Below, piece after piece: positions 3,537 to 61,651 of a stretch of 64,000 bases of DNA. Source of the stretch: Alphaproteobacteria bacterium (GTDB taxonomy: Bacteria; Pseudomonadota; Alphaproteobacteria; Sphingomonadales; Emcibacteraceae); contig JAADFR010000097.1 of the NCBI GenBank assembly GCA_013152755.1, forward strand, positions 1,316-65,315, written 5' to 3'. Within the stretch, counting starts at the first letter, position 1. The number at the start of each line of letters is the position of its first letter. The notes under the pieces were generated by a model. It saw only the letters and a list, made by a program, of their open reading frames with translations, did not search any database and was not told the DNA's origin. The position numbers and the translations under genes were made by a program.

Positions 3537-3617
3537 GCCTTGCGTCATATCAGGCGGATTGTCTAACATGACAGATATCAATAACGGTAAAATCCGAAAA
3601 TATATTGGGAAGGCGAT

Positions 3618-39753: not shown

Positions 39754-39937
39754 CTGTTCTGCTCCCTGAATTTAAATGCTGTTATCATTTTTATTCTCAT
39801 GAACCCTATATGACTGCTTTAATACCAGTTCACACAAGCCGTACCCTTTAAGATTAAAATCATATGGTGTCATGGCACCTTAGGATTTCAATTTGATACC
39901 TTACAATTTGTTCTTTGCAGTATCTTCTAATTTATAA

Positions 39938-39949
39938 TTAAACGATTAA
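39938..39949. promoter_or_regulatory. Candidate LacI-type operator TTAAACGATTAA (site 1, upstream of the TonB-dependent receptor gene)
   Basis: One mismatch to the palindrome TTAAACGTTTAA. Intergenic, 185 nt upstream of the receptor start. Confidence 0.5.
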
Positions 39950-39983
39950 GCTTCAAACCAAACTAAGACGCACATATAGTAGC

Positions 39984-39995
39984 TTAAACGTTAAA
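39984..39995. promoter_or_regulatory. Candidate LacI-type operator TTAAACGTTAAA (site 2, upstream of the TonB-dependent receptor gene)
   Basis: One mismatch to TTAAACGTTTAA. Centre lies 46 bp from site 1. Confidence 0.5.
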
Positions 39996-40136
39996 GTTAT
40001 CATGTGAGAAAAAAAGTGATTTGTCAAGTATATGCGAATACAGACTAAAAAATGCACTTAAAAACCAAGTGCTGAGGGTATATATTCACCTTCTGAAAAA
40101 AATTATTTTAATCTCGGACAACATATAACAACCTTC

Positions 40137-41000
40137 TTATTCATGCCTGCCATAGGGGGAATCGTCATGATTCACATTGATGCTGACCGGCATCCAGTTG
40201 CTCACTTCAGCCGTAAAAATGCTTTGTTGTTGACCCGCATAATACACCGCATCTGCACCAAGCAATAAATGCAGCGGGGCCTTTTTCGCTTCAAGCACCA
40301 ACATAATAGCCTTGGCCGCCAGAGCAGGATTTCCCGCCTCCTCCCCCGCGCTATCGGCTATTAATTTTCGGGAAAGTCCGGAACTATCGCGATAATCATC
40401 AATTTCAATCGCCGTATGGCTCAGGGAGTTTGCCCGGTTAAAATTTGTCCTGAACGCCCCTGGCGCCACATTGGTTACGCGAATACCAAACCCGACAACT
40501 TCCTGTGCCAATGCTTTTCCAACCGCCTCCAAAGCATGTTTGCTGGCACAATAATACCCGATACCGGCCCATGCGGCAATCCCGCTGACCGATGTGATAT
40601 TAAATATACTGCCAGATTTTTTCTGACGCATATAGGGCAGAACAGCCTGCAATACGGCTACGGCGCCGAAAAAGTTGACCTCCATCTGTGACCGTATTTC
40701 AGACAGGCTCGCCTCCTCAATAGCCCCAACCAAACAATAGCCCGCATTATTGACAAGAACATCAATTGACCCGGTGATGCCTGCCGCTTCTGCCACAACA
40801 CGCTTTATGGCACCGTCATCCCGAACATCCAGAATTTTACCCGTCGCCTTCCCGGACCTCAACGCCTCAAAGGCCTCTTTATCAGCCTCGCACCTTACCG
40901 TTCCGACAACAGTATCACCTCTCTCAAGGGCGGCCACGGCTATGGCCCGCCCAAACCCGCTACTCACCCCTGTAATCAACCATGTTCTTTTACTCTTCAT
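40137..41000 (-). CDS. SDR-family oxidoreductase
   Basis: TGVSSGFGRA cofactor motif, NNAG, and catalytic YCASKHA (YxxxK). Confidence 0.9.
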   Translation of the reverse strand: MKSKRTWLITGVSSGFGRAIAVAALERGDTVVGTVRCEADKEAFEALRSGKATGKILDVRDDGAIKRVVAEAAGITGSIDVLVNNAGYCLVGAIEEASLSEIRSQMEVNFFGAVAVLQAVLPYMRQKKSGSIFNITSVSGIAAWAGIGYYCASKHALEAVGKALAQEVVGFGIRVTNVAPGAFRTNFNRANSLSHTAIEIDDYRDSSGLSRKLIADSAGEEAGNPALAAKAIMLVLEAKKAPLHLLLGADAVYYAGQQQSIFTAEVSNWMPVSINVNHDDSPYGRHE

Positions 41001-41044
41001 TTTTCATACCTCCAATTTCGCAACAGGCAGGAGAGTACGGCAAC

Positions 41045-41056
41045 ATAAACGTTTAA
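41045..41056. promoter_or_regulatory. Candidate LacI-type operator ATAAACGTTTAA (upstream of the SDR gene)
   Basis: Perfect 10-bp core TAAACGTTTA, about 45 nt upstream of the SDR start and between the MFS stop and the SDR start. Confidence 0.55.
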
Positions 41057-41073
41057 GCAAACAGTCAATATTT

Positions 41074-42357
41074 TTACCTGGTAGGAATATTTATATCTTC
41101 TGCGTTTAAGTCATTACTGTGCCTTGGCGGGCGCATTGCCACAACGACAAAGAAAAGAACCAGTAATATACCAGACAGCCCCCTGTATACCCATGCAAAT
41201 CCCCCAAGGCCGTCCCCGATAATACCAGCAACTGTCGGGCCAACCATGGCAGTCACTGTAAAGAAATTCATACTGCCAACAATTTCCGGGCTGGCCTTCA
41301 TCCCATAATAGTTCACCAGCAGCGCGACAGTCGCAAAAAAACACATCCCGAACCCGTAACCGTCGGCCAAAATAAAGACAATCCGGGCATAATAGTTATC
41401 GGCAAAAGACAAACCTATCATACCAATCGCATCCGCCGCAAGAGCCGACGCCAGCAACCATCTGGGGTCAATGTAATTGGCGAGGGAGCCGCCCAGCGCA
41501 CGGGACAAAGCATTCACGACTGCCTGCATACTGAGCACAATAGCGGCAACCGTTGCGGCAACACCCAGGGACGTCATATGCGTGAACGCCCAGCTATTCA
41601 TGGTAACACTGGACAGTAAAATCGCAGTAAGAGCAAGTACAATAATGTAATATTGCGGCGTCCTCAGGGCTTCTTTTAACGTCCAGTCCACAAGTGATTT
41701 ATGCACCCGGCTCTTTTTTTGTTGGGAATTTTTTTTCACTTTTTTAAGTTTTTCAGCGACTTGTGGAACCACATCTTTAAAAAAAATAAGACCAAGTATG
41801 GTTAGGGTAAACATCGATACTGCGATAATCCACCAATAGGCCTGCCATGTCCCTGTATAACGCACGACACCGGTTACGACAAAGGGTGCCGCAACACCGC
41901 CCATGCCGCCAATCATCATAAAAATACCCATAGCAAAAGAATGTTTGTCCGGTATCCAGTTATTGAGAAAATATACAGCGGGTACCGAGGCGCAGTGGCT
42001 ATAGCCAAATCCAATAAACGCCGCCCCAATATAAAATTGCGTCAGACCGGTTGTGGTCGCCATTAATGATGTCCCCCCAATGACCATCACCCCGCCCAGG
42101 GCATATGTCGCCTTCAGGCCCACTCTCCGCAAGAGATAAGCCGGAATAGGCGCCGACAAACCGACCATGAGTGCCAACAGGGAAAACCCGATCCCTGCCT
42201 GCATACGAGTCCAGCCCATTTCCTTAATCATATAGGGTAAAATAACCCCAAGTGACGTAAAAGATGCTGCCGTAATGAGAAAGAAAATCAGGCTTATCAA
42301 GACAAACATAAACCATCTTCGCCTGTGAAAAGCGGCAATTTCCTGTTGATTATCCAT
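41074..42357 (-). CDS. MFS transporter
   Basis: 427 aa with about 12 TM helices and a central K-rich loop (AEKLKKVKKNSQQKKSR), as in the MFS topology. Confidence 0.85.
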   Translation of the reverse strand: MDNQQEIAAFHRRRWFMFVLISLIFFLITAASFTSLGVILPYMIKEMGWTRMQAGIGFSLLALMVGLSAPIPAYLLRRVGLKATYALGGVMVIGGTSLMATTTGLTQFYIGAAFIGFGYSHCASVPAVYFLNNWIPDKHSFAMGIFMMIGGMGGVAAPFVVTGVVRYTGTWQAYWWIIAVSMFTLTILGLIFFKDVVPQVAEKLKKVKKNSQQKKSRVHKSLVDWTLKEALRTPQYYIIVLALTAILLSSVTMNSWAFTHMTSLGVAATVAAIVLSMQAVVNALSRALGGSLANYIDPRWLLASALAADAIGMIGLSFADNYYARIVFILADGYGFGMCFFATVALLVNYYGMKASPEIVGSMNFFTVTAMVGPTVAGIIGDGLGGFAWVYRGLSGILLVLFFVVVAMRPPRHSNDLNAEDINIPTR

Positions 42358-42540
42358 GTCGTAAAACCATTAGCATATCCTAATTCTGGTTAGTTATATA
42401 TCTTCCCACCGCGCCGTTGGCACGCCTGTCTATACCCTGAATATATGCCCTGAATAATGTCCGTTACTGACTTATTGAATAAAGCCTTTAGATAATATTA
42501 TAGTATGATGTTTAAGTTTAAAACAATATTTACATTTACG

Positions 42541-43581
42541 TTATGTGCTTTCCAACCCGGTTTCGTTGTCAACAGTCTCGATCATACGCACAGACTGCCG
42601 TATAACAATATCCACGTCCAGAACGACGCTTTTCTTTGAGGCTTCGGGATTCTCTATACGCCGCATCAACAGGTTGACAGCCTCCTTGCCCAATTCAGAC
42701 AAAGGTTGCTTTATCGTTGTAAGAGGTGGCTGCACAATGTCACTCCAGGGTATATCATCAAAGCCAACGATCGATATGGTTTCAGGCACCTTTATTTTAT
42801 TTTGATTTAATATCTTGATCGCTGCAATGGCAATCATATCATTGGCGGCAACGACAACAGACACATCCTGCTGCAATAATCTCGCACGTGTTTCATCCCC
42901 CAATTCCATCGAAAAGGAATTTTCCACTTCCCAAACAACCTCTGCACTGTTGCCCAATTCATCCAGAAAACCCCGCCGGCGCTGTGCGGCACTTTCAAAT
43001 GACTGCGGACCGGAAATCAACCCTATTTTACAATGACCCTCTGACAATATATGCTGCGCGAGCAGTTTACCCCCCTTTATATAATCGGAGTAGACATTAT
43101 CATAATTGGGCAGCGGCCGGTCAATAACCACAACAGGTGTATCTGCCGAATATTCCTTAAAATAATCCATGTCCGAAGAGGGACACCAGACAATCCCCTC
43201 CACACCATATTGTATAAGTTTAAATATACCCTCCGCTTCTGCGGTTTGAGATTCTTGCGTATCAACCAGAAAGACAGCTAAATCATTACTTCTCGCGGCA
43301 TTTTCCACAGACTGCGCCAGTTCGGGGAAAAAAGGATTCCTGAGATCGGGCAATATCATACCTATGGTTTTTGTACGGCCTGTACGCATCGCCTGCGCAG
43401 ATAAATTAGGCACATAACCCCGAAGCTTGATGGCGCTTTTGACCTGTTTTCTTACCTGATCACTCACAGAGCCGGTATTATTCAAAACATATGATACCGT
43501 TGCCACTGAAACACCAGCCTCCCGAGCAACATCACGAAGTGTCGCCTTTCCTGAAAATTTTCTGGATTTGCTGCGGCTCAC
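42541..43581 (-). CDS. LacI-family transcriptional regulator
   Basis: N-terminal HTH ATLRDVAREAGVSVATVSYVLNN and YVPNLSAQAMRTGRTKTIG. C-terminal periplasmic-binding-protein-like sugar-binding fold (IVGFDDIPW). Confidence 0.92.
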   Translation of the reverse strand: MSRSKSRKFSGKATLRDVAREAGVSVATVSYVLNNTGSVSDQVRKQVKSAIKLRGYVPNLSAQAMRTGRTKTIGMILPDLRNPFFPELAQSVENAARSNDLAVFLVDTQESQTAEAEGIFKLIQYGVEGIVWCPSSDMDYFKEYSADTPVVVIDRPLPNYDNVYSDYIKGGKLLAQHILSEGHCKIGLISGPQSFESAAQRRRGFLDELGNSAEVVWEVENSFSMELGDETRARLLQQDVSVVVAANDMIAIAAIKILNQNKIKVPETISIVGFDDIPWSDIVQPPLTTIKQPLSELGKEAVNLLMRRIENPEASKKSVVLDVDIVIRQSVRMIETVDNETGLEST

Positions 43582-43778
43582 AATTTTTTCTCCAATTTAA
43601 TTCTTATGTGGCAGTCGTCATTGACTATAATTACAATAAATTCAGTAAACAACAAAGGATTGCCACTTACGCTCCGGATTCTGTTGATAATTATTAATAG
43701 TTATAATCATGCATTCCTACCATACCATCTATTCTCGAAACGTGACCACTATACTTACTATAAGATATTCATATTGAC

Positions 43779-43790
43779 TTAAACGATTAA
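43779..43790. promoter_or_regulatory. Candidate LacI-type operator TTAAACGATTAA (divergent LacI/ribokinase region)
   Basis: One mismatch to TTAAACGTTTAA. It abuts a TTGACT hexamer (43774-43779), 51 nt upstream of the ribokinase ORF start. Confidence 0.55.
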
Positions 43791-43840
43791 CCTATATAAG
43801 TATAATACATTAAAGAAAATAAAACAGATATATTTTTTTA

Positions 43841-44821
43841 TTGATCAAATATTACAAAGGCATTGAATTGGCACAAGAACGACAATTAGAAGATCAGGAT
43901 AAATACATAACTGTAGTGGGCAGCATCAATGCCGATATCACCACATATGTTCGTGACTTTCCGTCTAGAAACCAGACGGTCCTCGCCCGAAATGCCTCAC
44001 TAACCGTGGGGGGCAAAGGGCTTAATCAGGCCGTGGCTGCCAAAATAGCCGGTGGAGAAATTAATTTCATCGCGGCAATTGGACATGACGCTTTTGGCGA
44101 TATGGCACAAAGCTACCTCACACAGAATAAAATAAATACACAATATGTTAAAATAATTGACGGTGTAGCATCAGGAATAGCGAGCATAGTCGTTTCTGAA
44201 AAAGGGGACAATATGATTGTGGTCGCAACAGGGGCTAATGATCATCTTAACCCCAATGACATTATGGCCCATAAAGCCATTATACAATCCGGACGCATAG
44301 TTATCGTACAGATGGAAATCCCTTTGGAAACTGTTCGAACTGTCCTTTTGCTCGCGCATGAAGCGGGGGTTACGTCTATTTTAAATCCGGCCCCGGGATC
44401 TCTTGCCGCCAGAGAACTTCTGAAGTTAGCAGATTTCATCACACCAAACGAAACGGAAACAGATGAAATTGTCGGGATTTATCCACAAGACGCGCAATCG
44501 GCCCGGCTTGCCTGTGAAAAATTACGCCAGCATGGCTCTAAAAATATTATTATTACAATGGGCAAGGAAGGCTATTACATTGCCATAAATGGTCAGGAAT
44601 CTCTGGAGAATCCTTTTCCGGTTGACGCCATCGACCCAACCGGCGCTGGCGATGTCTTTAATGGCGTATTGGCCTCTGCGTTGGCAAGGGGCATGGGCGC
44701 CTTCCCGTCTGCACATTACGCGGCAGCCGCCGCCGCTCTTTCCGTAATGAAGCCCGGCGCACAGGAAGCCGCACCGTCGTGGACGGAAATAGAAAAATTT
44801 ATTCAGGATTACACTCAATAA
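43841..44821 (+). CDS. rbsK: Ribokinase (PfkB family)
   Basis: VVGSINADI, GGKGLNQAVAA and DPTGAGDVFNG are ribokinase/PfkB signatures. The start is uncertain: TTG at 43841 has no SD, while TTG at 43868 follows AAAGG. Confidence 0.8.
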   Translation: MIKYYKGIELAQERQLEDQDKYITVVGSINADITTYVRDFPSRNQTVLARNASLTVGGKGLNQAVAAKIAGGEINFIAAIGHDAFGDMAQSYLTQNKINTQYVKIIDGVASGIASIVVSEKGDNMIVVATGANDHLNPNDIMAHKAIIQSGRIVIVQMEIPLETVRTVLLLAHEAGVTSILNPAPGSLAARELLKLADFITPNETETDEIVGIYPQDAQSARLACEKLRQHGSKNIIITMGKEGYYIAINGQESLENPFPVDAIDPTGAGDVFNGVLASALARGMGAFPSAHYAAAAAALSVMKPGAQEAAPSWTEIEKFIQDYTQ

Positions 44822-45006
44822 TAAAGATTAGCATCAGGGCCATACACATAGATGGCACAACCATAGGCGGAATTACGCCATAACCGGAACAGGGTTAAAG
44901 AAAGGGGAAAAATGAAAATTCCAATAATCGCTTTCACATATAACCACTTGGATATTTCTAATCATACACAAGATGGGCCTGGCCCATCTTTCAAAGGAGT
45001 GAGATA

Positions 45007-46290
45007 ATGTGGCATAAAATATTTACCCGGCCCCATGGTGTAGTATTATCCTCAACAATCGGAATTTCGGTGGGCATCACCTCAACCATTGCCACTGTTT
45101 TCGGCATGTTTCTCATTCCCATATCTGAAGAATTCGGATTGCCCCGAAGCAGTATTTCAGCTGTATATCCAATCCTGGCCGTTACCAGTGCTCTTATTTA
45201 TCCGGTCATTGGCCGTTGGGCTGACCAGTTCGGCTCACGGATAGTAATTCTTATCGGAACCATATTGTTTGCCGCCTCGATTGCGACAGTTTCAATTGTC
45301 CAGGGGCTGGTACAATTCTATCTTATATTTGCCATGATTGGCTTAACCGGATCAGTCCTTGGCCCCATTTTATTCACGAAAGTCATCGCGGGCTGGTTTA
45401 ATAAGAACCGGGGATTTTATCTGGGCATGGTCAGCGGTGTCGGCAATGGCACGGGTAGCACTGTTATGCCACTGATTGTCGTTATTTTGTTGGCCAGCTT
45501 TGGCTGGCGCGGAACTTTTCAAAGCATCAGCCTCATTATTCTATTGTTTGGTCTGCCCTTTCTTATTTTCTTTTTCCGTGACCCGCCCAAAACGCCAATT
45601 CCGGTCGAGGAAGATGATTTTCATGTATTGTCAGATAATATATCAGATGTAAAAAATGTCACTTTTCAGGATGCCCGAAAAACCAAAGAATTCTGGATGG
45701 TGCTCATCGCCATACCCCTATGCGCCGGCTGTATGATGGCCGCCTTTACACATATTGTCCCCATTCTTCTTGACCGGGGCATGCCCCTTGGAAAGGCGAC
45801 TACAGTTTTATCCACCTTTGCGCTTGTCACCATTGCGGGGCAGATTTTTGCCGGTTCGCTACTGGACCGAACAAACAACCCCAGAATAGTTACCCCCTTG
45901 TTTGCAATCGCCGTAATTGGCGTATTCCTGCTCTATATTTCCACATCCTATACAGGATTGTTATTATCAGCCTCCCTGATGGGAATCGGGCTTGGTACTG
46001 AATTCGGATTATTACCCTATTCCATATCACGCTATTTTGGCTTGAAATCATATGGTGTCATATCTGGCGTTATGTATAGCGTGGTGGCCATAACCACAGG
46101 TTTTCTGCCCATGCTGATGGATGTGGTTTTTGATATATTTGGCAGCTATGACTATGCCACCATTGGCTTGATGGTGGGCCTGTTTATCGGAACAATTATT
46201 ATCGCACGCCTTCCCCCCTACCATATTGAAAAAACAGCAGAAAAGGTAGTTAAGGATCAGCCTGAGCCGGTGGTTTCAGAAGGATTATGA
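45007..46290 (+). CDS. MFS transporter
   Basis: ATG after AAAGGAG. 427 aa with about 12 TM helices and a central cytoplasmic loop. Confidence 0.85.
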   Translation: MWHKIFTRPHGVVLSSTIGISVGITSTIATVFGMFLIPISEEFGLPRSSISAVYPILAVTSALIYPVIGRWADQFGSRIVILIGTILFAASIATVSIVQGLVQFYLIFAMIGLTGSVLGPILFTKVIAGWFNKNRGFYLGMVSGVGNGTGSTVMPLIVVILLASFGWRGTFQSISLIILLFGLPFLIFFFRDPPKTPIPVEEDDFHVLSDNISDVKNVTFQDARKTKEFWMVLIAIPLCAGCMMAAFTHIVPILLDRGMPLGKATTVLSTFALVTIAGQIFAGSLLDRTNNPRIVTPLFAIAVIGVFLLYISTSYTGLLLSASLMGIGLGTEFGLLPYSISRYFGLKSYGVISGVMYSVVAITTGFLPMLMDVVFDIFGSYDYATIGLMVGLFIGTIIIARLPPYHIEKTAEKVVKDQPEPVVSEGL

Positions 46291-46761
46291 TAAGGATTTA
46301 TACTGACTGTCATGAAATATCAAAGGGTCCGCCGGTTTACAATTAAAATCCAGAACCTGACCAACAATAATAATATGGTCTCCCCCCTCGTGGCGGCATT
46401 CCACCCTACACTGGAAACAGGAGATATATGATTTCAACAGGGGTAAGTCTGCCAGACCAGAATCATACGGAATGGTTGCGAAATTATCTTCATTTGGCAT
46501 TGCAAAATGATTGGATAAATCCTGCTGATCCTGTCTTAACACATGAATAGCAAAATTGGGCACTTGATTAAAGACATCAAAAAAAATTGAATCTTTAGCG
46601 ATGCTCCACAAAACCAGTGCCGGTGCGAGAGATACTGATGCAAAACTATTTATGGTCATGCCTACAGGCTGTCCTTTATCACATGTTGTACTCACGACCA
46701 CAATGCCGGTTGCATAGGAAGAAAGTGCTTTTCTCAATTCTGCAGAATTAATATCGCCCAT
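46285..46761 (-). CDS. Flavin reductase family protein (HpaC/RutF-like)
   Basis: LRKALSSYATGIVVVST...GMTINSFASVSLAPALVLWSI is the flavin-reductase-like domain signature. Its 3' end overlaps the convergent MFS gene by 6 nt. Confidence 0.85.
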   Translation of the reverse strand: MGDINSAELRKALSSYATGIVVVSTTCDKGQPVGMTINSFASVSLAPALVLWSIAKDSIFFDVFNQVPNFAIHVLRQDQQDLSNHFAMPNEDNFATIPYDSGLADLPLLKSYISCFQCRVECRHEGGDHIIIVGQVLDFNCKPADPLIFHDSQYKSLS

Positions 46762-46827
46762 TTATTATACCTTTCAAAAATATTTGTTTTTACCCTATAA
46801 TTACCATCAAAGCATGTGGAGAAAAGA

Positions 46828-48219
46828 ATGTCTAGTGAAGTCGTTGATACCCTCATAAATGGTGCAAAAATCATCACAATGGATGAAAAACGCCGTATAT
46901 ATATGGATGGTTCCATCGCCATCAAGGGCGATCAAATTGCCGGCATAGGCAAGCGGGTGGATATTGAAAAGAAATATACCGCCACAAACAATATTGACGG
47001 CAGACGTTTTGTCATAACGCCAGGTTTTATCAATGGCCATATTCATATTACCGGTGATCCGCTGACACGGAATTATGTACCTGATGATATATATTGCTCG
47101 CCTCAGGAAAAACTGACCAAATGGGTTATGCCACGTTATTTTGCCCATTCTGCAGAAGAGGAAAGAGTTTCCGCACAACTCGCCGCACTGGAAATGTTAA
47201 AGGCGGGCACTACATGTTTTTTAGAAGCGGGGACTATTCGCCATCTTGATAGCGTGGTGGAGGGGCTGAACGAAACGGGTATTCGGGGGCGCGTGGGTTC
47301 ATGGGTGACAGGCCGGGCTATGAATCCTGATGAGGATCAGAATCAATTGAATGAAGAGGGTATTCGCACACTGGAAAATGAAGTCAAACGCTATCCCGCC
47401 CGCAAGGGAAATCTCATATCCGCCTGGCCCATTCTTATCGGCCATTCAACCAATTCAGACGAAATATGGCAGGCAGCCAAAACCATAGCTGATCATAACG
47501 GGCTGGGCATTTCAGCTCATATGAGCCCCTATCAAGAGGATCCTGACTGGTTTTTGAAAGAATATGGTCGACGCCCCATTGAACATCTGGAGAGCATTGG
47601 GGTCCTTGGGGATAATGTATCGCTCACACATGTTGCCCATATTGATGAAAATGAGCTGAATATTCTAGCCAGAACCGGAACCAATGTTATTTTCTGCCCG
47701 CTTCCAGCTTTAAAAGGCGCCTTTGGCGTAACCTCGGTCGGGCGGTATCCTGAAATGACACGGGCCGGAATAAATATGTTGCTGGGCACGGATGGTTATG
47801 ACATCGACATCCTTCATTCCGCACGAATTGTTGCCTCCCTCTTTAAAGATATACATCAGGATGTCAGACATTATCCGGTCCATGAAACCCTGACCATGCT
47901 GACATGCAACGGGGCAAAGGCAATGGGCATGCAGGATCAGATTGGCTCCCTCGAAGTTGGTAAAAAAGCTGATTTTTCCTGCCATGACACGGATCGGTCG
48001 GAATGGCGGCCTATACTCAGTTTGGTCAGTCAACTTATCTGGTCCGCTGACGGCAGGGGAATTCACAGTGTTTGGGTGGATGGCATCCGGGTGATTGATA
48101 ATTATCGCTCAACCATGATTGACGAAAAAGAATTGATGGGCAGGGTTCAGGAATGCGGTGAATCCGTGATCAGAAAAAGCAAAATTCCATTTGTGTCACC
48201 CTGGCCTGTTATCAGATAA
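46828..48219 (+). CDS. Amidohydrolase-superfamily hydrolase (TRZ/ATZ or deaminase-like)
   Basis: ATG at 46828 after GGAG (the track starts at GTG 46816). Metal-binding motif GFINGHIHITGD, plus later HMS, THVAH and GTDG motifs typical of the subfamily. Confidence 0.85.
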   Translation: MSSEVVDTLINGAKIITMDEKRRIYMDGSIAIKGDQIAGIGKRVDIEKKYTATNNIDGRRFVITPGFINGHIHITGDPLTRNYVPDDIYCSPQEKLTKWVMPRYFAHSAEEERVSAQLAALEMLKAGTTCFLEAGTIRHLDSVVEGLNETGIRGRVGSWVTGRAMNPDEDQNQLNEEGIRTLENEVKRYPARKGNLISAWPILIGHSTNSDEIWQAAKTIADHNGLGISAHMSPYQEDPDWFLKEYGRRPIEHLESIGVLGDNVSLTHVAHIDENELNILARTGTNVIFCPLPALKGAFGVTSVGRYPEMTRAGINMLLGTDGYDIDILHSARIVASLFKDIHQDVRHYPVHETLTMLTCNGAKAMGMQDQIGSLEVGKKADFSCHDTDRSEWRPILSLVSQLIWSADGRGIHSVWVDGIRVIDNYRSTMIDEKELMGRVQECGESVIRKSKIPFVSPWPVIR

Positions 48220-48243
48220 AGCACCGGATCAAGGGTTTTCTGC

Positions 48244-49111: not shown

Positions 49112-49142
49112 GAATATATCTCCCTATATTGACTAACAACTA

Positions 49143-49156
49143 ATTAAACGTTTAAT
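49143..49156. promoter_or_regulatory. Candidate LacI-type operator ATTAAACGTTTAAT (perfect 14-bp palindrome, upstream of the VOC/SnoaL pair)
   Basis: Perfect palindrome with a central CG, 32 nt upstream of the VOC start codon at 49111. Confidence 0.6.
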
Positions 49157-49306
49157 CAATCTACCACAAAATACCCGTAAGTTACAAGCTGTACAAAAAA
49201 AATTCGGAATATTTAGATAGATTTTTTACCCGTCTTCACGGACATGCTAACATATCAGTTGCCGGGTATTTTGAACCATTACGCACATAAACTTTTCATT
49301 TGATGA

Positions 49307-50074
49307 CTAATCCAGAATAGCCCCGAGGCGCTGGGAAACCTGTCTGGCCACATTTTTGACTGCCGTGACAAGATCAGGGTTGGGAACAGGGGCAATATGC
49401 TGAATGGAGCCGACAATGGTAATTGTACCTGCCAGCAAACCGGATTTCTCAAATACAGGCGCGGCCAAAGCATTTATGCCTATCAAGGCCTCCTCCGGGG
49501 CGACGGCCCATCCCTGTTGCTGTACAAGTTTTACATCTTCCTTAAGTTTCTTAATATTGGTAACTGTTTTTTCCGTCCATTGTTTCAGGGGCTTATTGGT
49601 CACAGAGTCCCATAAGTGTTTTGGACCAAAAGCCAAAGCTACCTTCCCCTGTGCAGAAGAATGAAAATCAAATAATGTACCCGGCGGTGACGTGATTTCG
49701 ATATCGGAACGGTTTTTTAGAATATCCAGGATACGCACACCATGATCCTCAATTTGACCAATGGCTACAGTCTGATTAACCTGCTCGCGCAAACCCTCCA
49801 TAAACCGCCGTGCTTCCGACAGGAATTCAATCTGTTCTGCCACGGATTGGCCCAAATGGAACAGTTTGATCGTCAACTGATATTTATCGGTTTGGGGATC
49901 CTGCATCACATATTGATTATCCAACAATGTTCGCAAATGGCGGTAAATTCTGGGCTTTGTGGCCCCAACTGCGCGCGCAAGTTCACTCACCCCCACCGGA
50001 CCCTGGGCATCGGCCATGGTTTCCAATATTGCCAGGGAGGTCGCCACGGATTGTATGGGTACGATATCAGACAT
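49307..50074 (-). CDS. IclR-family transcriptional regulator
   Basis: N-terminal winged HTH (SLAILETMADAQGPVGVSELARAVGATKPRIYRHLRTL) and C-terminal IclR effector domain (GINALAAPVF). Confidence 0.9.
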   Translation of the reverse strand: MSDIVPIQSVATSLAILETMADAQGPVGVSELARAVGATKPRIYRHLRTLLDNQYVMQDPQTDKYQLTIKLFHLGQSVAEQIEFLSEARRFMEGLREQVNQTVAIGQIEDHGVRILDILKNRSDIEITSPPGTLFDFHSSAQGKVALAFGPKHLWDSVTNKPLKQWTEKTVTNIKKLKEDVKLVQQQGWAVAPEEALIGINALAAPVFEKSGLLAGTITIVGSIQHIAPVPNPDLVTAVKNVARQVSQRLGAILD

Positions 50075-50083
50075 GTAAAGGGC

Positions 50084-50863
50084 CTATGTTTTTAACTTAA
50101 AATCTTCGCATAATTTTTTTGCCGCATCAGACAATAACGCCTGATCGCTTGAAATAAAGAACAAACTGATGCCCTTTGCACGCATATCATCACATTGGTC
50201 CGATGAAGGCAGGTAAATCGCCGTTGTCTGTCCCGCTTTTCGTGCCGCCGCACAGATTGTATCCACCGCCGCCTGCACACATGGATCATTCGCCGCATCA
50301 ACCCCGTATGAAACCGACAGGTCTGCACAGCCAATGAACAGGGCATCCATTTCTGAAACCGTCGCAATTTCAGCAATATTCTCAACCGCCGCGACATCCT
50401 CTATCTGGCCGATGACGATCATAACCTCATCGCTTTGTTGCCGATGGTTTTTTGCAGCAATCGCCCCATAACCGGCGGCCCTGTGAGAGGCGGAAAACCC
50501 CCGGCTTCCGTCCCTGTATCTGGTCACGGCAATAGCGGTTTCAGCCTCATTCATATTTCGTATATGGGGCAGGATGACCCCCGCCGCCCCCATATCAAGA
50601 GATTTCGCAATTAAGTCGGATGATATGTCCGGCACGCGCACCAACACGGGAATTTCCGCCAAATGGGCCGCCATGATACATCTGTCCAGGCTTTCAATAC
50701 CAAAGGCCGAATGTTCGGCATCTAAAACAAGGCAGTCGAATTGCGCTCCGGCCATAAGCTCAACAGCCTGCGGCGATGGTATTTTGATAAATAACCCCAG
50801 CGTAGGCTCCCCGCCCCGGATTTTTGCCTTCAGGCGCCTTTGACGTTCAATTCTTTCCATCAC
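50084..50863 (-). CDS. HpcH/HpaI-family aldolase
   Basis: GLFIKIPSPQAVELMAGAQFDCLVLDAEHS and IGQIEDVAAVENI match the HpcH/HpaI class II aldolase pattern. Confidence 0.85.
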   Translation of the reverse strand: MMERIERQRRLKAKIRGGEPTLGLFIKIPSPQAVELMAGAQFDCLVLDAEHSAFGIESLDRCIMAAHLAEIPVLVRVPDISSDLIAKSLDMGAAGVILPHIRNMNEAETAIAVTRYRDGSRGFSASHRAAGYGAIAAKNHRQQSDEVMIVIGQIEDVAAVENIAEIATVSEMDALFIGCADLSVSYGVDAANDPCVQAAVDTICAAARKAGQTTAIYLPSSDQCDDMRAKGISLFFISSDQALLSDAAKKLCEDFKLKT

Positions 50864-50869
50864 AATGCT

Positions 50870-51244
50870 TTATTCATTTTTAAATTCATTCTTCTGATAA
50901 TCAACCAAATGCCGATAATCATCGCGTATTGGGCTGAAAATATCAAGATTCATCACCGGCTCGTCACCAATCGGTTCCCCGAAATGGGGAACATTGGGGG
51001 GAATTCTGATAAGGCTACCCGGCCCTGCTTCAATTTCCTCCCCGTCAATATTAAAGCGAATACGCCCCGAAACGATGAAAACTACCTGCTCGCAAGGATG
51101 GCTATGGGGGTTGACCGCCATCCCCGGCTGTAGCCAGTTCATGACCATCAGAACATCTTTGCCGCGAAAACCGGACCGGACCACCCCGTCTCGGACCACC
51201 TCTTTTGGTAAATCATCCCAATTAAAAAGTTTCGCCTTATTCAT
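50870..51244 (-). CDS. Cupin domain protein
   Basis: The HSHPCEQVVFIVSGR...IPPNVPH spacing is the two-motif cupin signature. 124 aa. Confidence 0.8.
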   Translation of the reverse strand: MNKAKLFNWDDLPKEVVRDGVVRSGFRGKDVLMVMNWLQPGMAVNPHSHPCEQVVFIVSGRIRFNIDGEEIEAGPGSLIRIPPNVPHFGEPIGDEPVMNLDIFSPIRDDYRHLVDYQKNEFKNE

Positions 51245-51378
51245 CTTGTTACCCTTTCCAAAGTCCCTCTATAGCCGCAATTATTCAGATATATATCGGC
51301 AAGTGACATGATGTGTCTCATAAGGAAACACTATATCATTATAAGCAGGTTTTCAATGAAATTAGGCCCCCGGCAGCA

Positions 51379-52344
51379 TCATGCCTCATGCGCGGGAGGT
51401 GAATTTTTCCGGCGGTATTCGCGCGGAGACGTTCCATAGACATCCCGGAAAGACCGACTAAAATAGGCTGAACTGTTAAATCCCCATCTAAAGCATATTT
51501 CAGTAATTGATATTTGGGCAAATAGCGGGCTTACCAAATCTGCCCGGCACCGCTCCAGACGTCTGATTCTAACATAATTACTGAATGTTTTATTGGCGAG
51601 CGTGAAGAGCTTCTGTAAATACCGCAAGGAAATCCCGTGTTTTTCGGCAACATTTTTCGAGGTCAGTTCAGGATCCCCCAAGAGCGATTCTATGGTTTGA
51701 CAAATACGGTGCAGATTATCAGCGCGAATATTCGCCGCACGGCTAACGGACAGGCTGGTATTCTGTTCAACGATACAGGTTAAAAGAAGTTCGGTCAGCG
51801 CAAGCTCTAAGGGGCGCAGATCATCATCATTAATATCATCCATCACCTCTGCCAGAGACTTCAACATACCGGAAAGAACATGATTAATCCCGCTTGCCCC
51901 TGATAAATATCCAAGGCTTAACGACAATGGCGAAAGCAGACGAGGGTTAATGGCAATATGGGGAACCTTGATAAAAAGCTGGCGAAAACGGCTGGTAAAT
52001 TTAAGAGTGGCATCAACATCCGTAGGCCCGTATATTATATCACCCGGTAATAATACTATATCCTGCTCCCCACTCTTCAGACAAGCCTGCCCCTCAAGCA
52101 GCAACGTTAACCAGATAGCCTCTTCCTGTTTTGGGTATTGTCCGGATATTTCCAAAGGTTCCGCGTCAACCCGCGCAAATTCGATGCCTAACGGCGAGAC
52201 AATACAGGACACCGCCCCGTAAAAATGATCTGTCTTTGATATATTATTGATGGGCAGGCATAATCGCCGCATGGCATTAAGCCAGGCCGCCTGCTTTTCA
52301 TCTCCTAAAAACGCATCTGTTGTGAAGTTCCAGGCCTTCATCAA
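51379..52344 (-). CDS. AraC-family transcriptional regulator
   Basis: C-terminal dual HTH (LTSKNVAEKHGISLRYLQKLF ... ITEICFRWGFNSSAYFSRSFRDVYGTSPREYR). Confidence 0.88.
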   Translation of the reverse strand: MMKAWNFTTDAFLGDEKQAAWLNAMRRLCLPINNISKTDHFYGAVSCIVSPLGIEFARVDAEPLEISGQYPKQEEAIWLTLLLEGQACLKSGEQDIVLLPGDIIYGPTDVDATLKFTSRFRQLFIKVPHIAINPRLLSPLSLSLGYLSGASGINHVLSGMLKSLAEVMDDINDDDLRPLELALTELLLTCIVEQNTSLSVSRAANIRADNLHRICQTIESLLGDPELTSKNVAEKHGISLRYLQKLFTLANKTFSNYVRIRRLERCRADLVSPLFAQISITEICFRWGFNSSAYFSRSFRDVYGTSPREYRRKNSPPAHEA

Positions 52345-52429
52345 GCTGGCTTTCCCTTAAAATATATATTCTGCTGTATCATAACCCCATAGGAGAAGAA
52401 AACAAGCATAGGCAATGACCATCGATAGC

Positions 52430-53218
52430 TCAGTCGTGCAAAACAAAACTCATCATGCTTAAGGATTTATACTGAATGTGGCTGGGATCAATTGTGACCT
52501 TATCATCATCGTGACGCGCGCCTAGAACGTAGAAAAGAGGCCAATAATGATCCGTCGTAGGAATTGAAAGCGCGGCATCCTGCCCCAGAACATCTGTATC
52601 AAACAGCTTTTCGGGCTGGTCTTTGATAATACAGTCCATCACCAGATCATTAAACCGCGTCGCCCAGTCATAGGGTTTGGCGGTTTCGCTCCATTCCATA
52701 CGGGGCAGATTATGGACCACATTTCCCGACCCGATAATCAGAACCCCTTCCGACCGCAACTGGCGCAAAGCCTGCCCGGTCTTATAATGCCAATCCGTGG
52801 GTTTGGTCATATCCATACTCAATTGCACGACAGGAATATCAGCATCGGGGTAGGCTTTGGTCAGAACTGCCCATGTGCCGTGATCCAGTCCCCAGTCATG
52901 ATCGAGTACGACCGGCAATGGTGACAAAAGATCCCGCACCCTTTTGGCAAGCTGCGGATCACCGGGGGCCGGATACTGGCAATCGAACAAAGGCGCCGGC
53001 AGGCCGCGGCCAAAATCATGTATTGTTTTCGGGTTGGCCATACCCGTCACCGCTATCCCCCGCGTACACCAATGGGCCGACACACTTAATATGGCCCTGG
53101 GACGTACGATGTTGGCCGTGATTTTCGCCCATGCCCTGGTAGAGACATTGTCTTCCAACACATTTGTCGGGCTGCCATGACCAAAAAAAACCACCGGCAT
53201 TCTATCATGACTGGACAT
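52430..53218 (-). CDS. 4,5-DOPA-dioxygenase-type (YgiD/LigB class III) extradiol dioxygenase
   Basis: MPVVFFGHGSPTNVLEDN, SAHW, TIHDFGRGLP, YPDADIPVVQLS and GSGNVVHNL run collinear with E. coli YgiD as I remember it. Confidence 0.88.
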   Translation of the reverse strand: MSSHDRMPVVFFGHGSPTNVLEDNVSTRAWAKITANIVRPRAILSVSAHWCTRGIAVTGMANPKTIHDFGRGLPAPLFDCQYPAPGDPQLAKRVRDLLSPLPVVLDHDWGLDHGTWAVLTKAYPDADIPVVQLSMDMTKPTDWHYKTGQALRQLRSEGVLIIGSGNVVHNLPRMEWSETAKPYDWATRFNDLVMDCIIKDQPEKLFDTDVLGQDAALSIPTTDHYWPLFYVLGARHDDDKVTIDPSHIQYKSLSMMSFVLHD

Positions 53219-53239
53219 ATTTTCCCTTACCTAAGCTTG

Positions 53240-54484
53240 TTAACATTGAGCAACGTCATCGGTGCATTGACTTACCTGTCCTTTTGAAGCGGGCAGTTTT
53301 GCGCCATTCTCTTTCAATTTTTCCCAACATTCCTGATATCGCGGGACCAGCCAGCTATTGAGCTGTTGCTGGGCACCTTCCTGCCATGAATACCGTCCCC
53401 GGACGGCAAAGCGTGACCGCAACCCCTTCTGAACCAGCGCATCTACATGCTGATCCTGATCCATAATCTGTAGAGCAATGGCCATATTAGCCGCCAGATT
53501 ATCATCAAAAGCCGGGCTATCCATTGCCCCGGGTGCCATCAGTAATCCGGTGTCCATTTCATGGGTTTCCGGCCCATCGGCCCGCACATTGAGGAAAAAC
53601 ACCATGTCATTGGTTAACACCAAGGACAATGTGGGCGGAATATTGGCAAACAGCACCTGATTCCGGTCGCCTTCCGTCAGATTAGGAAATAAGGGAAACA
53701 ACGCCTTTTGGCTGGCATTAAAACTGGCATCCTTGTGAAGTGTGCCATTAATACGGGCATAACCGGCGGTATCCATCGGCATTTCCGGGAAGGAACATAA
53801 TTCACTGGGAATAAAATCGTGGAAAGGCCCCCCGTGAAGACGGCTTGCATGATAGCCGTCATTGTTATTTTCAAACATCACCTTCCAGTTCCAGTCGAAT
53901 TTAGCCGCTTCATCCGGCAAGGGGCCAACGGCACTGCTCAGGTCATATGGTTCAAGTATTTTGGCCACCTCCACAAGTCTTGGTGCCAGCGGAGCGGCGG
54001 CTTCATCAAAATTAATAAAGACAAAACCCAGCCATACTTCCACTTTGAATGTGGGCAATTGGATATCTGCCTTGTCAAAGTTACATGTTTTTTCCATGGC
54101 CGGGCCATTTAACAGCGCCCCATCCAGCGAATAGGTCCAGTGATGATACGGACACATAAAAGCCCGGGCATTGCCTCTGTTTTCCGCAACCAGCATCGCC
54201 CGGTGCTGGCACACAGAAGACATTGCCTTCAATTCGCCCTCGCGGTTACGAACCACTATTATCGGCTCGCCAATGATGGATGTCGTGAAATAATCGCCCG
54301 CCTCCATGGCCCAGGATTCGCGCCCTACACATAGCCATTCATGATTAAAAACGGCTTCTTTTTCAAATTCATAGAAATCAGCATCCGTATAACATTCCGG
54401 CGGCAGGGTTTCACTTTCTTCTACCGGCAATACCGAACTGTCAAGGCCTCTAAAAAAATCATCATTCAGAACAGTTTTTTTCAT
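53240..54484 (-). CDS. Rieske [2Fe-2S] ring-hydroxylating oxygenase, alpha subunit
   Basis: Rieske motif CQHRAMLV...CPYHHWTY and a C-terminal catalytic domain with NNNDGYH. There is no adjacent beta-subunit, ferredoxin or reductase gene. Confidence 0.9.
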   Translation of the reverse strand: MKKTVLNDDFFRGLDSSVLPVEESETLPPECYTDADFYEFEKEAVFNHEWLCVGRESWAMEAGDYFTTSIIGEPIIVVRNREGELKAMSSVCQHRAMLVAENRGNARAFMCPYHHWTYSLDGALLNGPAMEKTCNFDKADIQLPTFKVEVWLGFVFINFDEAAAPLAPRLVEVAKILEPYDLSSAVGPLPDEAAKFDWNWKVMFENNNDGYHASRLHGGPFHDFIPSELCSFPEMPMDTAGYARINGTLHKDASFNASQKALFPLFPNLTEGDRNQVLFANIPPTLSLVLTNDMVFFLNVRADGPETHEMDTGLLMAPGAMDSPAFDDNLAANMAIALQIMDQDQHVDALVQKGLRSRFAVRGRYSWQEGAQQQLNSWLVPRYQECWEKLKENGAKLPASKGQVSQCTDDVAQC

Positions 54485-54519
54485 GACATACCCTTTCTTT
54501 CTAGCTCAATTTAGTGGAC

Positions 54520-54531
54520 ATAAACGTTTAA
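54520..54531. promoter_or_regulatory. Candidate LacI-type operator ATAAACGTTTAA (upstream of the Rieske oxygenase gene)
   Basis: Perfect 10-bp core TAAACGTTTA, 36 nt upstream of the Rieske start (54484), in the divergent Rieske/TauD region. Confidence 0.55.
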
Positions 54532-54791
54532 CTAATAAACACATTATGTCAACCCTGCCTCATTTTCTTGCACAGAGGCGCACACAGACTTGGCTAATTG
54601 CTTTGCGCTACAGTATATAGAGTTCTTAAATCTATTAAAAATACTATTTAAAAACAGAAAATTCAAATGAAAGCAATCCCCCCTGCAATTCTGCGGGCGC
54701 ATCAGTGCAAGACGATACCTTTATATACCCTTATTTTATCCTCATTCAAAAATTTATATTATAATGATAACAACAATGATCAGGAGTGAAT

Positions 54792-55646
54792 ATGAGCAAT
54801 CAGGTTCAACTGGATATTAAGGAACTAAAACCGGGTTTCGGTGCTGAGGTTACCAATGTAGATATTACTTCGGCTGATGATGATACACGCACAAAGTTAG
54901 TTGAAACGTTTCATAAACATGGGGCATTATTGTTGCGCGATCAGAATTTAACCCCACGGCAGTTGTTGGATTATCTTGGGCTATTTGGTGAACCGGAGGG
55001 CCATACGCTGCAACAATATACCCTGCCCGACTATCCCAATATTTACCTGCTGTCCAACAAGCAGGAAAATGGTCGCCAGATCGGGGCGCATAATGACGGC
55101 GTAGGCTGGCACACGGACTATTCCTATAAAGAATTTCCTGTACAAAACACCATGCTTTATGCGGTTGAAGTGCCGCCCGAAGGCAGCGATACCATTATCG
55201 CTGACTGTTGCGCGGCCTATAACGCCCTGACGACCGACCGCAAAGAACAACTTGATAAATTGATCCTGCATCACAGCTATAAATATTTCATGGAGAACAG
55301 GGAATATGGCCGGATGAAGCTGTCAAAGGAGCTTGAAGCGGAAAATCCCGATGTTTTCCATCCTCTGATCCGTACCCACCCGGCAGACGGACGCAAGGCA
55401 TTATGGATAAGCACAGGAACGGTCAAGGAAATTGTCGGAATGGATAATCCGGAAGGTCTGGACCTCATTGATGAATTGGTTGATTTTGTCACCCAGGACC
55501 AGTTTACCTACCGTCATAAATGGCGCGTCGGAGATGTGTTGACATGGGACAATCGCTGCACCTTGCATACGGGAACCATCTATGATGATAAGAAATATGA
55601 CCGCCTGATGTACCGCATGTGGATTAAAGGCGACAAGCCATTTTAA
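54792..55646 (+). CDS. TauD/TfdA-family Fe(II)/2-oxoglutarate dioxygenase
   Basis: ATG at 54792 after AGGAG. HxD motif in GWHTDYSY, a distal H in TLHTG, and WDNRCTLH, typical of the family. Confidence 0.88.
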   Translation: MSNQVQLDIKELKPGFGAEVTNVDITSADDDTRTKLVETFHKHGALLLRDQNLTPRQLLDYLGLFGEPEGHTLQQYTLPDYPNIYLLSNKQENGRQIGAHNDGVGWHTDYSYKEFPVQNTMLYAVEVPPEGSDTIIADCCAAYNALTTDRKEQLDKLILHHSYKYFMENREYGRMKLSKELEAENPDVFHPLIRTHPADGRKALWISTGTVKEIVGMDNPEGLDLIDELVDFVTQDQFTYRHKWRVGDVLTWDNRCTLHTGTIYDDKKYDRLMYRMWIKGDKPF

Positions 55647-55675
55647 GAAATTGAACTTCTACATTAGGCAGACAA

Positions 55676-55711
55676 AAGCCCCGCTTGAAATATATATTCA
55701 GCGGGGCTTTC
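55676..55711. terminator. Bidirectional hairpin terminator between the convergent TauD and VOC genes
   Basis: AAAGCCCCGCT-TGAAATATATATTC-AGCGGGGCTTT, a perfect 11-bp GC-rich stem flanked by A and T runs on both sides. Confidence 0.7.
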
Positions 55712-55716
55712 GCATG

Positions 55717-56208
55717 CTATTCGCGGGTATAGTTATCAGGCACCTGCGGGTCATCACCGCCTTTGGTCCAGAGTATAATTTCATTTCCCCACGGGTCACA
55801 AAAAGCATCATTAAAGCCGTTAAATTCAGCCCAGAAATGACGGCGCCAAAGGGTTTTCGCCCCGCGTTCCACCGCCGCATCAATAATACGGTCCGCAGAA
55901 TCATCGTCGCTAACCATAATCCAGATTCTGGCTTTTCGGCCATCCTTACTCAACTCACGGGGCGCGACACCCTCAAGGTCAGGATTGGGGCGCGCATTTT
56001 TCGCATCAAAAATACCCAGATGCAGGTTGCCGACTTCGCTCTGTGATTTATCTGAATTAAGAAAATTCTGGCCGGGCACCATGCGATGGTATACCCCGTC
56101 CGGGCGGGGATCATCCTCCCAGCCAAAAACCTCCGCATAGAACTTCCCGGCAGCCGATGGATCATCCGAGGCTAGGTCGACGAAAATTAAGGTATTTGGA
56201 TATGACAT
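55717..56208 (-). CDS. VOC (glyoxalase) family protein
   Basis: IFVDLASDDPSAAGKFYAEVFGWE and CDPWGNEIILW are VOC module signatures. Confidence 0.7.
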   Translation of the reverse strand: MSYPNTLIFVDLASDDPSAAGKFYAEVFGWEDDPRPDGVYHRMVPGQNFLNSDKSQSEVGNLHLGIFDAKNARPNPDLEGVAPRELSKDGRKARIWIMVSDDDSADRIIDAAVERGAKTLWRRHFWAEFNGFNDAFCDPWGNEIILWTKGGDDPQVPDNYTRE

Positions 56209-56256
56209 TGGTTATTCTCCTGCTTGTCATTTTTTCTATTGTTGATTATTCATAGA

Positions 56257-56264
56257 TAACGTTA
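56257..56264. promoter_or_regulatory. Contracted variant TAACGTTA of the operator-like palindrome (upstream of the second VOC gene)
   Basis: 8-bp palindrome with the same central CG but one base shorter per half-site, 49 nt upstream of the VOC start at 56208. Confidence 0.3.
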
Positions 56265-57819: not shown

Positions 57820-57820
57820 T

Positions 57821-61647: not shown

Positions 61648-61651
61648 TCAC

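Follow-up and report, generated by a model that had tools for sequence, protein, structure and literature searches.

Putative operators of an RbsR-like LacI-family regulator in an Emcibacteraceae gene island that joins ribokinase and oxygenase genes

A gene island from an alphaproteobacterium of the Emcibacteraceae carries six palindromes with a central CG, which span positions 39934–54535 and are all intergenic. They lie in a 64,000-nucleotide stretch of contig JAADFR010000097.1 (GenBank assembly GCA_013152755.1, positions 1,316 to 65,315 of the forward strand), and by "the window" we mean this whole 64-kb stretch. The original prediction made from this DNA had proposed that the palindromes are LacI-type operators linking the genes for a TonB-dependent receptor (TBDR), a ribokinase, and a ring oxygenase in one regulon. 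Our analysis indicates that the six palindromes are quite probably operators of an RbsR-like repressor of the LacI family that is encoded among them, at 42541–43581. This reading draws on the site statistics, the central-CG form of the sites, the co-occurrence of the motif with LacI genes, the promoter geometry, a phylogenetic footprint at the VOC1 gene, and the pairing of an RbsR-like regulator with a ribokinase. From these data we infer that the local protein binds the sites, that it acts as a repressor, and what its effector might be.

The predicted operators, listed without strand and with scores from the position weight matrix (PWM) described below, and one predicted promoter are as follows.

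39934–39953 (core 39938–39949), no strand: predicted TBDR operator O2, 20.7 bits, in the TBDR leader 46 bp from O1
39980–39999 (core 39984–39995), no strand: predicted TBDR operator O1, 20.5 bits, starting 3 nt downstream of the predicted −10 hexamer
39999–40027, minus strand: predicted sigma-70-type TBDR promoter, TTGACA-17-CATGAT, 10 of 12 consensus positions, a consensus match only
41041–41060 (core 41045–41056), no strand: predicted operator of the short-chain dehydrogenase/reductase (SDR) gene, 18.4 bits, in the spacer after TTGACT (41068–41063)
43775–43794 (core 43779–43790, TTAAACGATTAA), no strand: predicted rbsK operator, 23.2 bits, with its left arm overlapping a TTGACT −35 box at 43774–43779
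49140–49159 (core 49144–49155, a perfect TTAAACGTTTAA), no strand: predicted VOC1-SnoaL operator, 22.2 bits, 3 nt after a −10-like GTAGAT
54516–54535 (core 54520–54531), no strand: predicted Rieske-LigB operator, 20.2 bits, over a stretch that reads as a −10-like TATAAT in the related locus L171

The genes that adjoin these sites are the following.

37210–39753, minus strand: TBDR, 847 amino acids, Pfam Plug and TonB_dep_Rec_b-barrel
40137–41000, minus strand: SDR oxidoreductase, Pfam adh_short, NCBIfam subfamily NF004824
41074–42309, minus strand: major facilitator superfamily (MFS) transporter
42541–43581, minus strand: LacI-family regulator, 346 amino acids, Pfam LacI helix-turn-helix (HTH) and Peripla_BP_1/3 (PF00356, PF13377)
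43841 or 43868 to 44821, plus strand: ribokinase gene rbsK with a TTG start at either position, TIGR02152
45007–46290, plus strand: MFS transporter downstream of rbsK
48614–49111, minus strand: VOC1 (glyoxalase fold), overlapping a SnoaL-like gene at 48244–48660 (Pfam; gene calls on L001)
52430–53218, minus strand: LigB-type gene of the 4,5-DOPA extradiol dioxygenase family, NF007914 at 336.7 bits versus a cutoff of 233
53240–54484, minus strand: Rieske oxygenase, alpha-type (Pfam)

The TBDR gene, the two MFS genes, and the LacI gene thus fall within 9 kb and are presumably co-regulated.

Six 12-mer sites had been reported for this region, and each is indeed present with at most one mismatch to TTAAACGTTTAA; these are the six matches at this stringency in the window (starts at 39938, 39984, 41045, 43779, 49144, and 54520). 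They occupy five promoter regions rather than the "at least six" originally counted, because two of the sites share the TBDR leader. The exact 10-mer TAAACGTTTA does occur three times between genes, as had been noticed (41046, 49145, and 54521), compared to an expectation of 0.08, and none of 100 shuffles reaches three copies. When two mismatches to TTAAACGTTTAA are permitted, the window holds 7 matches versus 3.4 expected, which is not significant alone. Therefore, the signal was taken to be the sites with no mismatch or one, and a PWM was built from other genomes. This 20-bp, symmetrised matrix was trained on 63 sites that come from other genomes only and that were selected for a central CG, and its consensus is A-S-TTAAACGTTTAA-S-T.

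A PWM scan of the window returns exactly six sites at 18.4–23.2 bits, all intergenic and all between 39.9 and 54.5 kb. At a threshold of 16 bits, these six matches compare with 0.055 expected, and the next matches score 14.6 bits (in the TauD open reading frame, ORF) and then 9.0 bits. Matrix positions 10 and 11 are always C and G, both in the 63 training sites, chosen for a central CG, and in all six window sites. Furthermore, the six sites cluster in 15 kb that surround the single LacI gene of the window, and the scan finds no comparable site in the other ~47 kb; the original prediction had likewise not noticed the motif in "the other 40 kb". A second LacI candidate at 270–1310, also 346 amino acids long, was rejected because its translation is not LacI-like.

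Some weaker matches were set aside. A contracted seventh site at 56257–56264, which had been included in the original series, is not among the top 25 PWM matches and was rejected. The 14.6-bit match at 54898–54917 (TGAAACGTTTCA, with a 12-bp palindrome at 54902–54913) encodes the peptide VETFH of TauD. Because orthologues keep this peptide but read ACC for ACG, and so have no central CG, the palindrome is probably a coincidence of synonymous codons. The 9.0-bit match at 36082–36101 (TTGGATAAACGATTGATTGT) is weak and half-site-like. It precedes by 133 nt an ORF just outside the island that encodes a small secreted protein (36235–36666), and it is probably not a functional site.

The evidence that weighs most is comparative, in that the motif also accompanies the LacI gene in other genomes. 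We compared 80 genomic loci that encode LacI relatives at 34–58% identity (loci bear labels of the form L### throughout). L001 and L002 represent the same strain (99.9% identical) and are uninformative for footprinting. In 21 of the 80 loci, many of them from genomes of 60–72% GC in which so AT-rich a 12-mer would be very unlikely, a copy with at most one mismatch stands no more than a few hundred bp from the LacI gene, and a slightly relaxed pattern places a site near this gene in about half of the loci. In the 80 genomes, sites occur at a density of 0.46 per kb near the LacI orthologues and of 0.023 per kb in the remaining parts of these loci, a 20-fold difference. The site usually lies 40–300 bp from the orthologue, across very distant taxa, and all of the closer relatives at 70–90% identity (L083-85, L087, L088, L169, and L171) carry it.

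Motifs of LacI-family regulators are even palindromes of 16–22 bp that have a central CG as a rule (1173 of 1303 transcription factors) and that mostly lie 30–140 bp upstream of start codons (PMC4052901). The motif described here fits this rule in being an even palindrome with a central CG, in having a LacI HTH gene nearby, and in its placement at promoters. Centre-to-start distances are 38 nt for VOC1, 41 nt for the Rieske gene, 50 nt for the SDR gene, and 56–83 nt for rbsK. Together, the enrichment near LacI orthologues and the conserved positions at rbsK, TBDR, and VOC1 lend good in silico support to the proposal that the sites are LacI-type operators of the adjacent gene.

Variation was also encountered among the relatives. 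Steroidobacteraceae loci (L015-L018, L021, L024, L026, L034, and L040) have an asymmetric variant, TTAAACGTTTTT, near LacI-rbsK and a TAAAACGTTTAA site several kb away, and the operator seems to be drifting in this clade of the subfamily. In L088 (6588–6607 and 4010–5161; LacI 73% identical), the gene that follows a perfect operator encodes a class II fructose-bisphosphate aldolase, and LacI adjoins a gene for a phosphofructokinase. From this locus, regulon content is seen to shift between close lineages.

The predicted operators hold recurrent positions relative to promoter elements. At rbsK, the TTGACT that overlaps the left arm of the operator is also found in L004, L005, L014, L022, L029, L061, L083-85, L088, L169, L171, and L177. 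At the TBDR gene, a terminator-like hairpin (40072–40054) after the SDR gene precedes the predicted promoter. The order of TTGACA, a 17-nt spacer, a −10-like hexamer (CATGAT, CAATAT, CATTAT, or CACAAT), 3 nt, and then the operator is shared by the window and L003, L005, L009, and L010, whose LacI proteins are only 47–53% identical. In L005 (LacI 52% identical), there is even a pair of operators 46 bp apart before the TBDR gene, as in the window. The VOC1-SnoaL promoter has a −10-like hexamer, 2–4 nt, and then the operator ~30 nt before the start in the window, L170, L171, and L178 (Paremcibacter congregatus-type), and nucleotide identity of this region is 85% for L170 and ~70% for both L171 and L178. 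Because the VOC1 operator has been kept in four lineages while the surrounding sequence diverged, it is a true phylogenetic footprint. A dimer bound at the rbsK, TBDR, and VOC1 operators would be expected to exclude RNA polymerase, which is a classical mode of repression.

Two further observations concern these leader regions. No Rfam model matches at its gathering threshold anywhere in the window, and at E below 1 there are only spurious snoRNA matches; as no Rfam element lies in the long leader of the TBDR gene, a riboswitch or another RNA element there was rejected. The 5.2-kb contig L170 contains the VOC1-SnoaL segment with its operator twice (1–1044 and 2934–3977, 97% identity); the segment is either truly duplicated or the product of a chimeric assembly from two strains.

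The regulator itself resembles RbsR. Its best NCBIfam matches are the RbsR models NF047341 (259.1 bits versus a cutoff of 382) and NF007743 (199.6 bits versus 531), and among solved structures it is closest to 3ctp and to 9ny7, a ribose operon repressor. The divergent neighbour had been called a ribokinase, and it passes the corresponding equivalog model (TIGR02152, 309.4 bits versus a cutoff of 299.65), with the operator overlapping its promoter. Adjacency of LacI and PfkB (ribokinase) genes holds in most of the 80 loci, from these Alphaproteobacteria to the rbsRK operons of Firmicutes. The recognition helix reads VSVATVSYVLN versus VSTTTVSHVIN in PurR, and a Met occupies the "leucine lever" position of the hinge. 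The outer operator bases (TT/AA, not CG/CG) are consistent with these differences in helix and hinge.

The conserved, ancestral regulon that we would assign to this regulator consists of rbsK(-MFS), TBDR, and VOC-SnoaL. A TBDR gene lies behind an operator in L003, L004, L005, L009, L010, L014, and L177, and in L003, L009, L010, L014, and L177 this is an orthologue of 51–61% identity directly downstream of LacI. The VOC-SnoaL pair has its own operator in the four lineages noted above, is directly downstream of the operator-controlled TBDR gene in L009 and L010, and is downstream of rbsK in L177. Footprinting in relatives, with homologue searches for the island comparison seeded with VOC1 and TauD, therefore divides the single regulon that had been proposed: the operators at rbsK, TBDR, and VOC1 are kept, whereas those at the SDR and Rieske-LigB genes are seen in this lineage only. 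The SDR orthologue is usually in the TauD operon, and in this lineage it stands behind an MFS gene with its own operator. In alignment, L171 has an AT-rich sequence, TATAAT, at the place of the Rieske operator, and this operator has the look of a site that evolved recently across the −10 region. We would regard the SDR and Rieske-LigB operators as lineage-specific additions over control by AraC- and IclR-type regulators. Because they match the consensus as well as the conserved sites do, we expect that these predicted operators are bound by the repressor.

The remainder of the island, which includes these other regulators, comprises the following genes.

46285–46761, minus strand: flavin reductase
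46828–48219, plus strand: amidohydrolase
49307–50074, minus strand: IclR-type regulator
50084–51244, minus strand: HpcH-type aldolase and cupin
51379–52344, minus strand: AraC-type regulator (FeaR-like)
54786–55646, plus strand: TauD-family dioxygenase
55717–56208, minus strand: second VOC gene
56269–59899, minus strand: hydantoinase B and A (caprolactamase-like)
60103–61647, plus strand: AMP-dependent ligase
61619–63025, plus strand: rubredoxin-reductase fusion
63181–63861, plus strand: IS240-type DDE transposase, end of the island

With LacI-, IclR-, and AraC-type proteins, the island encodes three regulators, and the view that one repressor governs it as a whole does not hold. Indeed, the divergent Rieske/TauD region has conserved boxes of its own, in the form of an inverted pair of GCGC-N4-GTGCAAGA elements at 54566–54581 (minus strand) and 54697–54712 (plus strand), which are the only two matches in the window. 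L171, L089/L178, and L173 keep these boxes, and 40 of the 79 Rieske orthologues among the matches listed have GTGCAAG in their upstream region. The boxes are probably sites of the adjacent AraC-type (FeaR-like) regulator. Moreover, the Paremcibacter congregatus-type loci L178 and L179 are without the MFS-rbsK-LacI-MFS-SDR segment (window 40137–46290), so that this segment is a movable module; there, the TBDR gene abuts the flavin reductase gene and the VOC1 operator is kept. Presumably, a LacI-type regulator is encoded elsewhere in the L178-type genome.

Several points count against the operator interpretation as we have presented it. The core of the PWM was chosen by the window's own consensus, and it is the flanks and the site positions only that constitute independent evidence. 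The two TBDR operators, at 190 and 236 nt, stand farther upstream of their start codon than the usual 30–140 nt, although they fit the predicted promoter. A Rieske-LigB operator with at most one mismatch is found upstream of 0 of 80 metagenomic Rieske loci among the matches listed (61–80% identity), and it is missing from L171, L089, L173, and L178 in alignments of the syntenic islands; the SDR operator is missing from every relative examined. In addition, the LacI protein falls under both RbsR equivalog cutoffs, and the annotated island part of the window (~26–64 kb) holds no rbsABCD genes, the operator-linked transporters being of the MFS and TBDR types. The regulator is called RbsR-like, not RbsR, because the RbsR models are its best matches but are sub-cutoff, and because it has the ribokinase neighbour and no rbsABCD genes. 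These same sub-cutoff scores and missing genes make D-ribose a guess as the effector. Finally, the confinement of the sites to the island rests on a 64-kb window, and a paralogous LacI protein with the same specificity may be encoded elsewhere.

This last point bears on the explanation that the six sites serve a paralogous or global regulator of the LacI type whose gene lies elsewhere in the genome, with the adjacent LacI gene being just one of its targets. We consider this unlikely. Global LacI-type regulators do exist in Alphaproteobacteria (PMC4052901), L066 has two LacI paralogues and five sites, and L178 keeps the VOC1 operator with no LacI gene in the 21 kb shown. However, the motif tracks this particular LacI orthologous group, close to the gene, across very distant taxa, and the rest of the window is free of sites. 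As for L178, its organism may encode the regulator elsewhere, since an Emcibacteraceae LacI orthologue (58% identity) sits on another contig. It also seems rather unlikely that the functional operators are those at rbsK, TBDR, and VOC1 only, with the SDR and Rieske-LigB sites being recent chance products of AT-rich promoter DNA that have little effect. The lack of these two sites in all relatives, syntenic islands included, would fit this explanation, as would the few substitutions needed to derive the Rieske site from an AT-rich −10-like stretch and the presence in the Rieske/TauD region of other conserved boxes, probably for the AraC-type regulator. Yet the SDR and Rieske sites both hold the exact TAAACGTTTA, for which the expectation in 64 kb is 0.08 copies, and at 18–20 bits they score as high as conserved sites. 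They also overlap core promoter positions. If the repressor is in the cell, it should bind them.

Even less probable, and in our judgment highly improbable, is an origin of the palindromes as a dispersed repeat or mobile element, as IclR- or AraC-type sites, or by chance. An IS240-family transposase does stand at the end of the island, the DNA is AT-rich, and IclR-type sites can be palindromic. However, the 50-bp flanks of the six sites are 14–42% identical to one another (~30%), which is background level, and the six are therefore not copies of a repeat element such as a miniature inverted-repeat transposable element; the repeat origin that had been named as a possible refutation is thus not borne out. 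The motif is likewise found beside LacI orthologues in loci without an IclR or AraC gene (L061, L083-85, L088, and Firmicutes rbsRK), and shuffles never reach the observed count.

Returning to operators of the local RbsR-like protein, we propose that a repressor dimer would occupy the 16–18 bp consensus and block RNA polymerase at five promoters. For rbsK-MFS, the operator would cover the −35 box and spacer; for TBDR, one operator would sit at the transcription start, predicted near 39992, and another 46 bp downstream; for VOC-SnoaL, it would lie just past the −10 box; for SDR, inside the spacer; and for Rieske-LigB, over the −10 region. An effector, the likeliest being ribose or a ribose-containing intermediate, would free these promoters, so that uptake, ribose salvage, and part of an oxidative pathway would be switched on together. 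The ancestral regulon would have comprised rbsK, TBDR, and VOC-SnoaL, with the SDR and Rieske-LigB operators having been gained later in this lineage.

What the oxidative pathway acts on can be approached through its enzymes. The original prediction had tied the ribokinase to a Rieske/extradiol dioxygenase pair, and the link between a ribokinase and the Rieske/LigB/TauD cluster proves to be real and widespread. Ribokinase-like genes (TIGR02152, 269–326 bits) lie beside Rieske-LigB-AraC and divergent TauD-SDR genes in many unrelated marine and soil contigs without LacI; loci with such a gene beside the Rieske-LigB cluster include L092, L096, L107, L109, L125, L130, L137, and L143, among others. 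Because the arrangement recurs in unrelated contigs, the ribokinase and oxygenase set is a conserved functional association and not an accident of the window. The label of ring oxygenase fares less well. Among characterised enzymes, the Rieske protein is nearest to carnitine monooxygenase CntA, GbcA, and stachydrine demethylase Stc2, in alignments that cover its N-terminal half only (residues 25–223) and at scores far below the equivalog cutoffs. With CntA and stachydrine demethylase as its nearest solved relatives, the ring assignment is doubtful for this protein, and the LigB-type (DODA family) enzyme alone argues for ring cleavage.

The Rieske system has no beta subunit gene, and neighbouring genes specify a flavin reductase and a rubredoxin-reductase fusion. 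The AMP-dependent ligase and the rubredoxin-fused pyridine-nucleotide oxidoreductase (60103–63025) travel with the island in L175 and L178, and the latter protein is a possible source of electrons for the Rieske enzyme. Both MFS transporters belong to the monocarboxylate type and are not sugar porters, and the one downstream of rbsK is of the monocarboxylate / oxalate-formate type. In sphingomonad-type relatives, a PhoD-type phosphodiesterase gene follows the VOC-SnoaL-amidohydrolase unit (L176 2540–4171; L177 2701–4350 and 12327–13961), which hints that the island substrate may be phosphorylated.

We know of no pathway that combines a Rieske enzyme with a DODA-type extradiol dioxygenase, TauD, SDR, and ribokinase. 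Keyword searches of the literature for a regulon or pathway joining ribokinase, Rieske, extradiol dioxygenase, TonB, and LacI found nothing relevant, and neither did searches for a pathway with ribokinase, Rieske, hydantoinase, and TauD. Riboflavin or lumichrome, nicotinate riboside, modified nucleosides, and alpha-ribazole were considered from the enzyme families alone, and we claim none of them. Our guess is that the substrate is a ribose-bearing, nitrogen-containing acid. Perhaps, and we offer this tentatively, the operators mark an undescribed pathway for a ribose-bearing, probably nitrogen-containing, carboxylated nutrient, such as a pyridinium- or betaine-type riboside. Such a compound could enter via the TBDR, and the ribose released from it might feed the ribokinase and lift the RbsR-like repressor. 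The aglycone could then pass to the CntA-like Rieske enzyme, TauD, the DODA-type dioxygenase, the amidohydrolase, and the caprolactamase-like pair under AraC/IclR control. If this speculation is true, the pathway would be environmentally widespread, since hundreds of marine and soil contigs show the ribokinase-Rieske-LigB-TauD association, and Paremcibacter congregatus is a cultured relative that carries the island.

The regulatory device itself is of the textbook kind, whereas its linkage of ribokinase to an uncharacterised, widely conserved oxygenase island is noteworthy. The analysis provides an operator model, clean and supported by comparison across genomes, for an RbsR-like subfamily that has had no name until now. 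This subfamily is widespread in Alphaproteobacteria, Steroidobacteraceae, and other groups, and its conserved targets beyond ribose genes appear to be the TBDR gene and the VOC-SnoaL pair. It also suggests that regulon growth is visible here, in the form of new operators at SDR and Rieske-LigB promoters already under other regulators. Finally, it offers a way into an uncharacterised island that many marine and soil metagenomes share, because the effector of the regulator should point to the substrate.

Among known systems, RbsR is the most immediate comparison, as the two share the LacI-family HTH with a sugar-binding fold, the ribokinase neighbour of rbsRK operons, and an even, CG-centred palindrome. 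The E. coli rbs operator is itself an even palindrome with a central CG and a AAACGTTT core. The window operator differs from it in its outer positions, which are TT/AA rather than the CG/CG of RbsR. Moreover, the predicted targets here include TBDR, VOC-SnoaL, SDR, and Rieske-LigB, whereas ribose utilisation is the only function under which described RbsR regulons (RegPrecise) are listed. Operators of E. coli PurR likewise have the AAACGTTT core and the central CpG that hinge helices contact, and the similarity of the regulator to PurR structures is 130 bits. PurR arose from RbsR by duplication, and its orthologues are reported from three gammaproteobacterial orders only (PMC4052901). In contrast to the system described here, PurR needs a corepressor and controls nucleotide biosynthesis, and nothing in the window suggests either.

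The clustering of a LacI-type gene with TBDR, MFS, and catabolic enzyme genes recalls the sux locus of Xanthomonas, one of the TBDR-containing carbohydrate utilisation (CUT) loci, so that in content the system joins traits of RbsR regulons and of CUT loci. The sux locus encodes the LacI-type SuxR, the TBDR SuxA, the MFS protein SuxC, and the enzyme SuxB (PMC1790865, PMC12798719). In the window, the TBDR promoter is likewise under a predicted operator, which is conserved in several alphaproteobacteria. However, unlike in sux and other CUT loci, there is no glycoside hydrolase or similar enzyme among the 20 island proteins. A ribokinase stands there instead, with oxygenases, an amidohydrolase, and an ATP-dependent lactamase-like pair, and the MFS proteins are of the monocarboxylate type. 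Finally, CntA, GbcA, and Stc2 belong to alpha-only Rieske systems for quaternary amines, and the Rieske gene of the window also lacks a beta subunit partner. It differs from them in its conserved partners, which are the DODA-type extradiol dioxygenase, TauD, SDR, and ribokinase.

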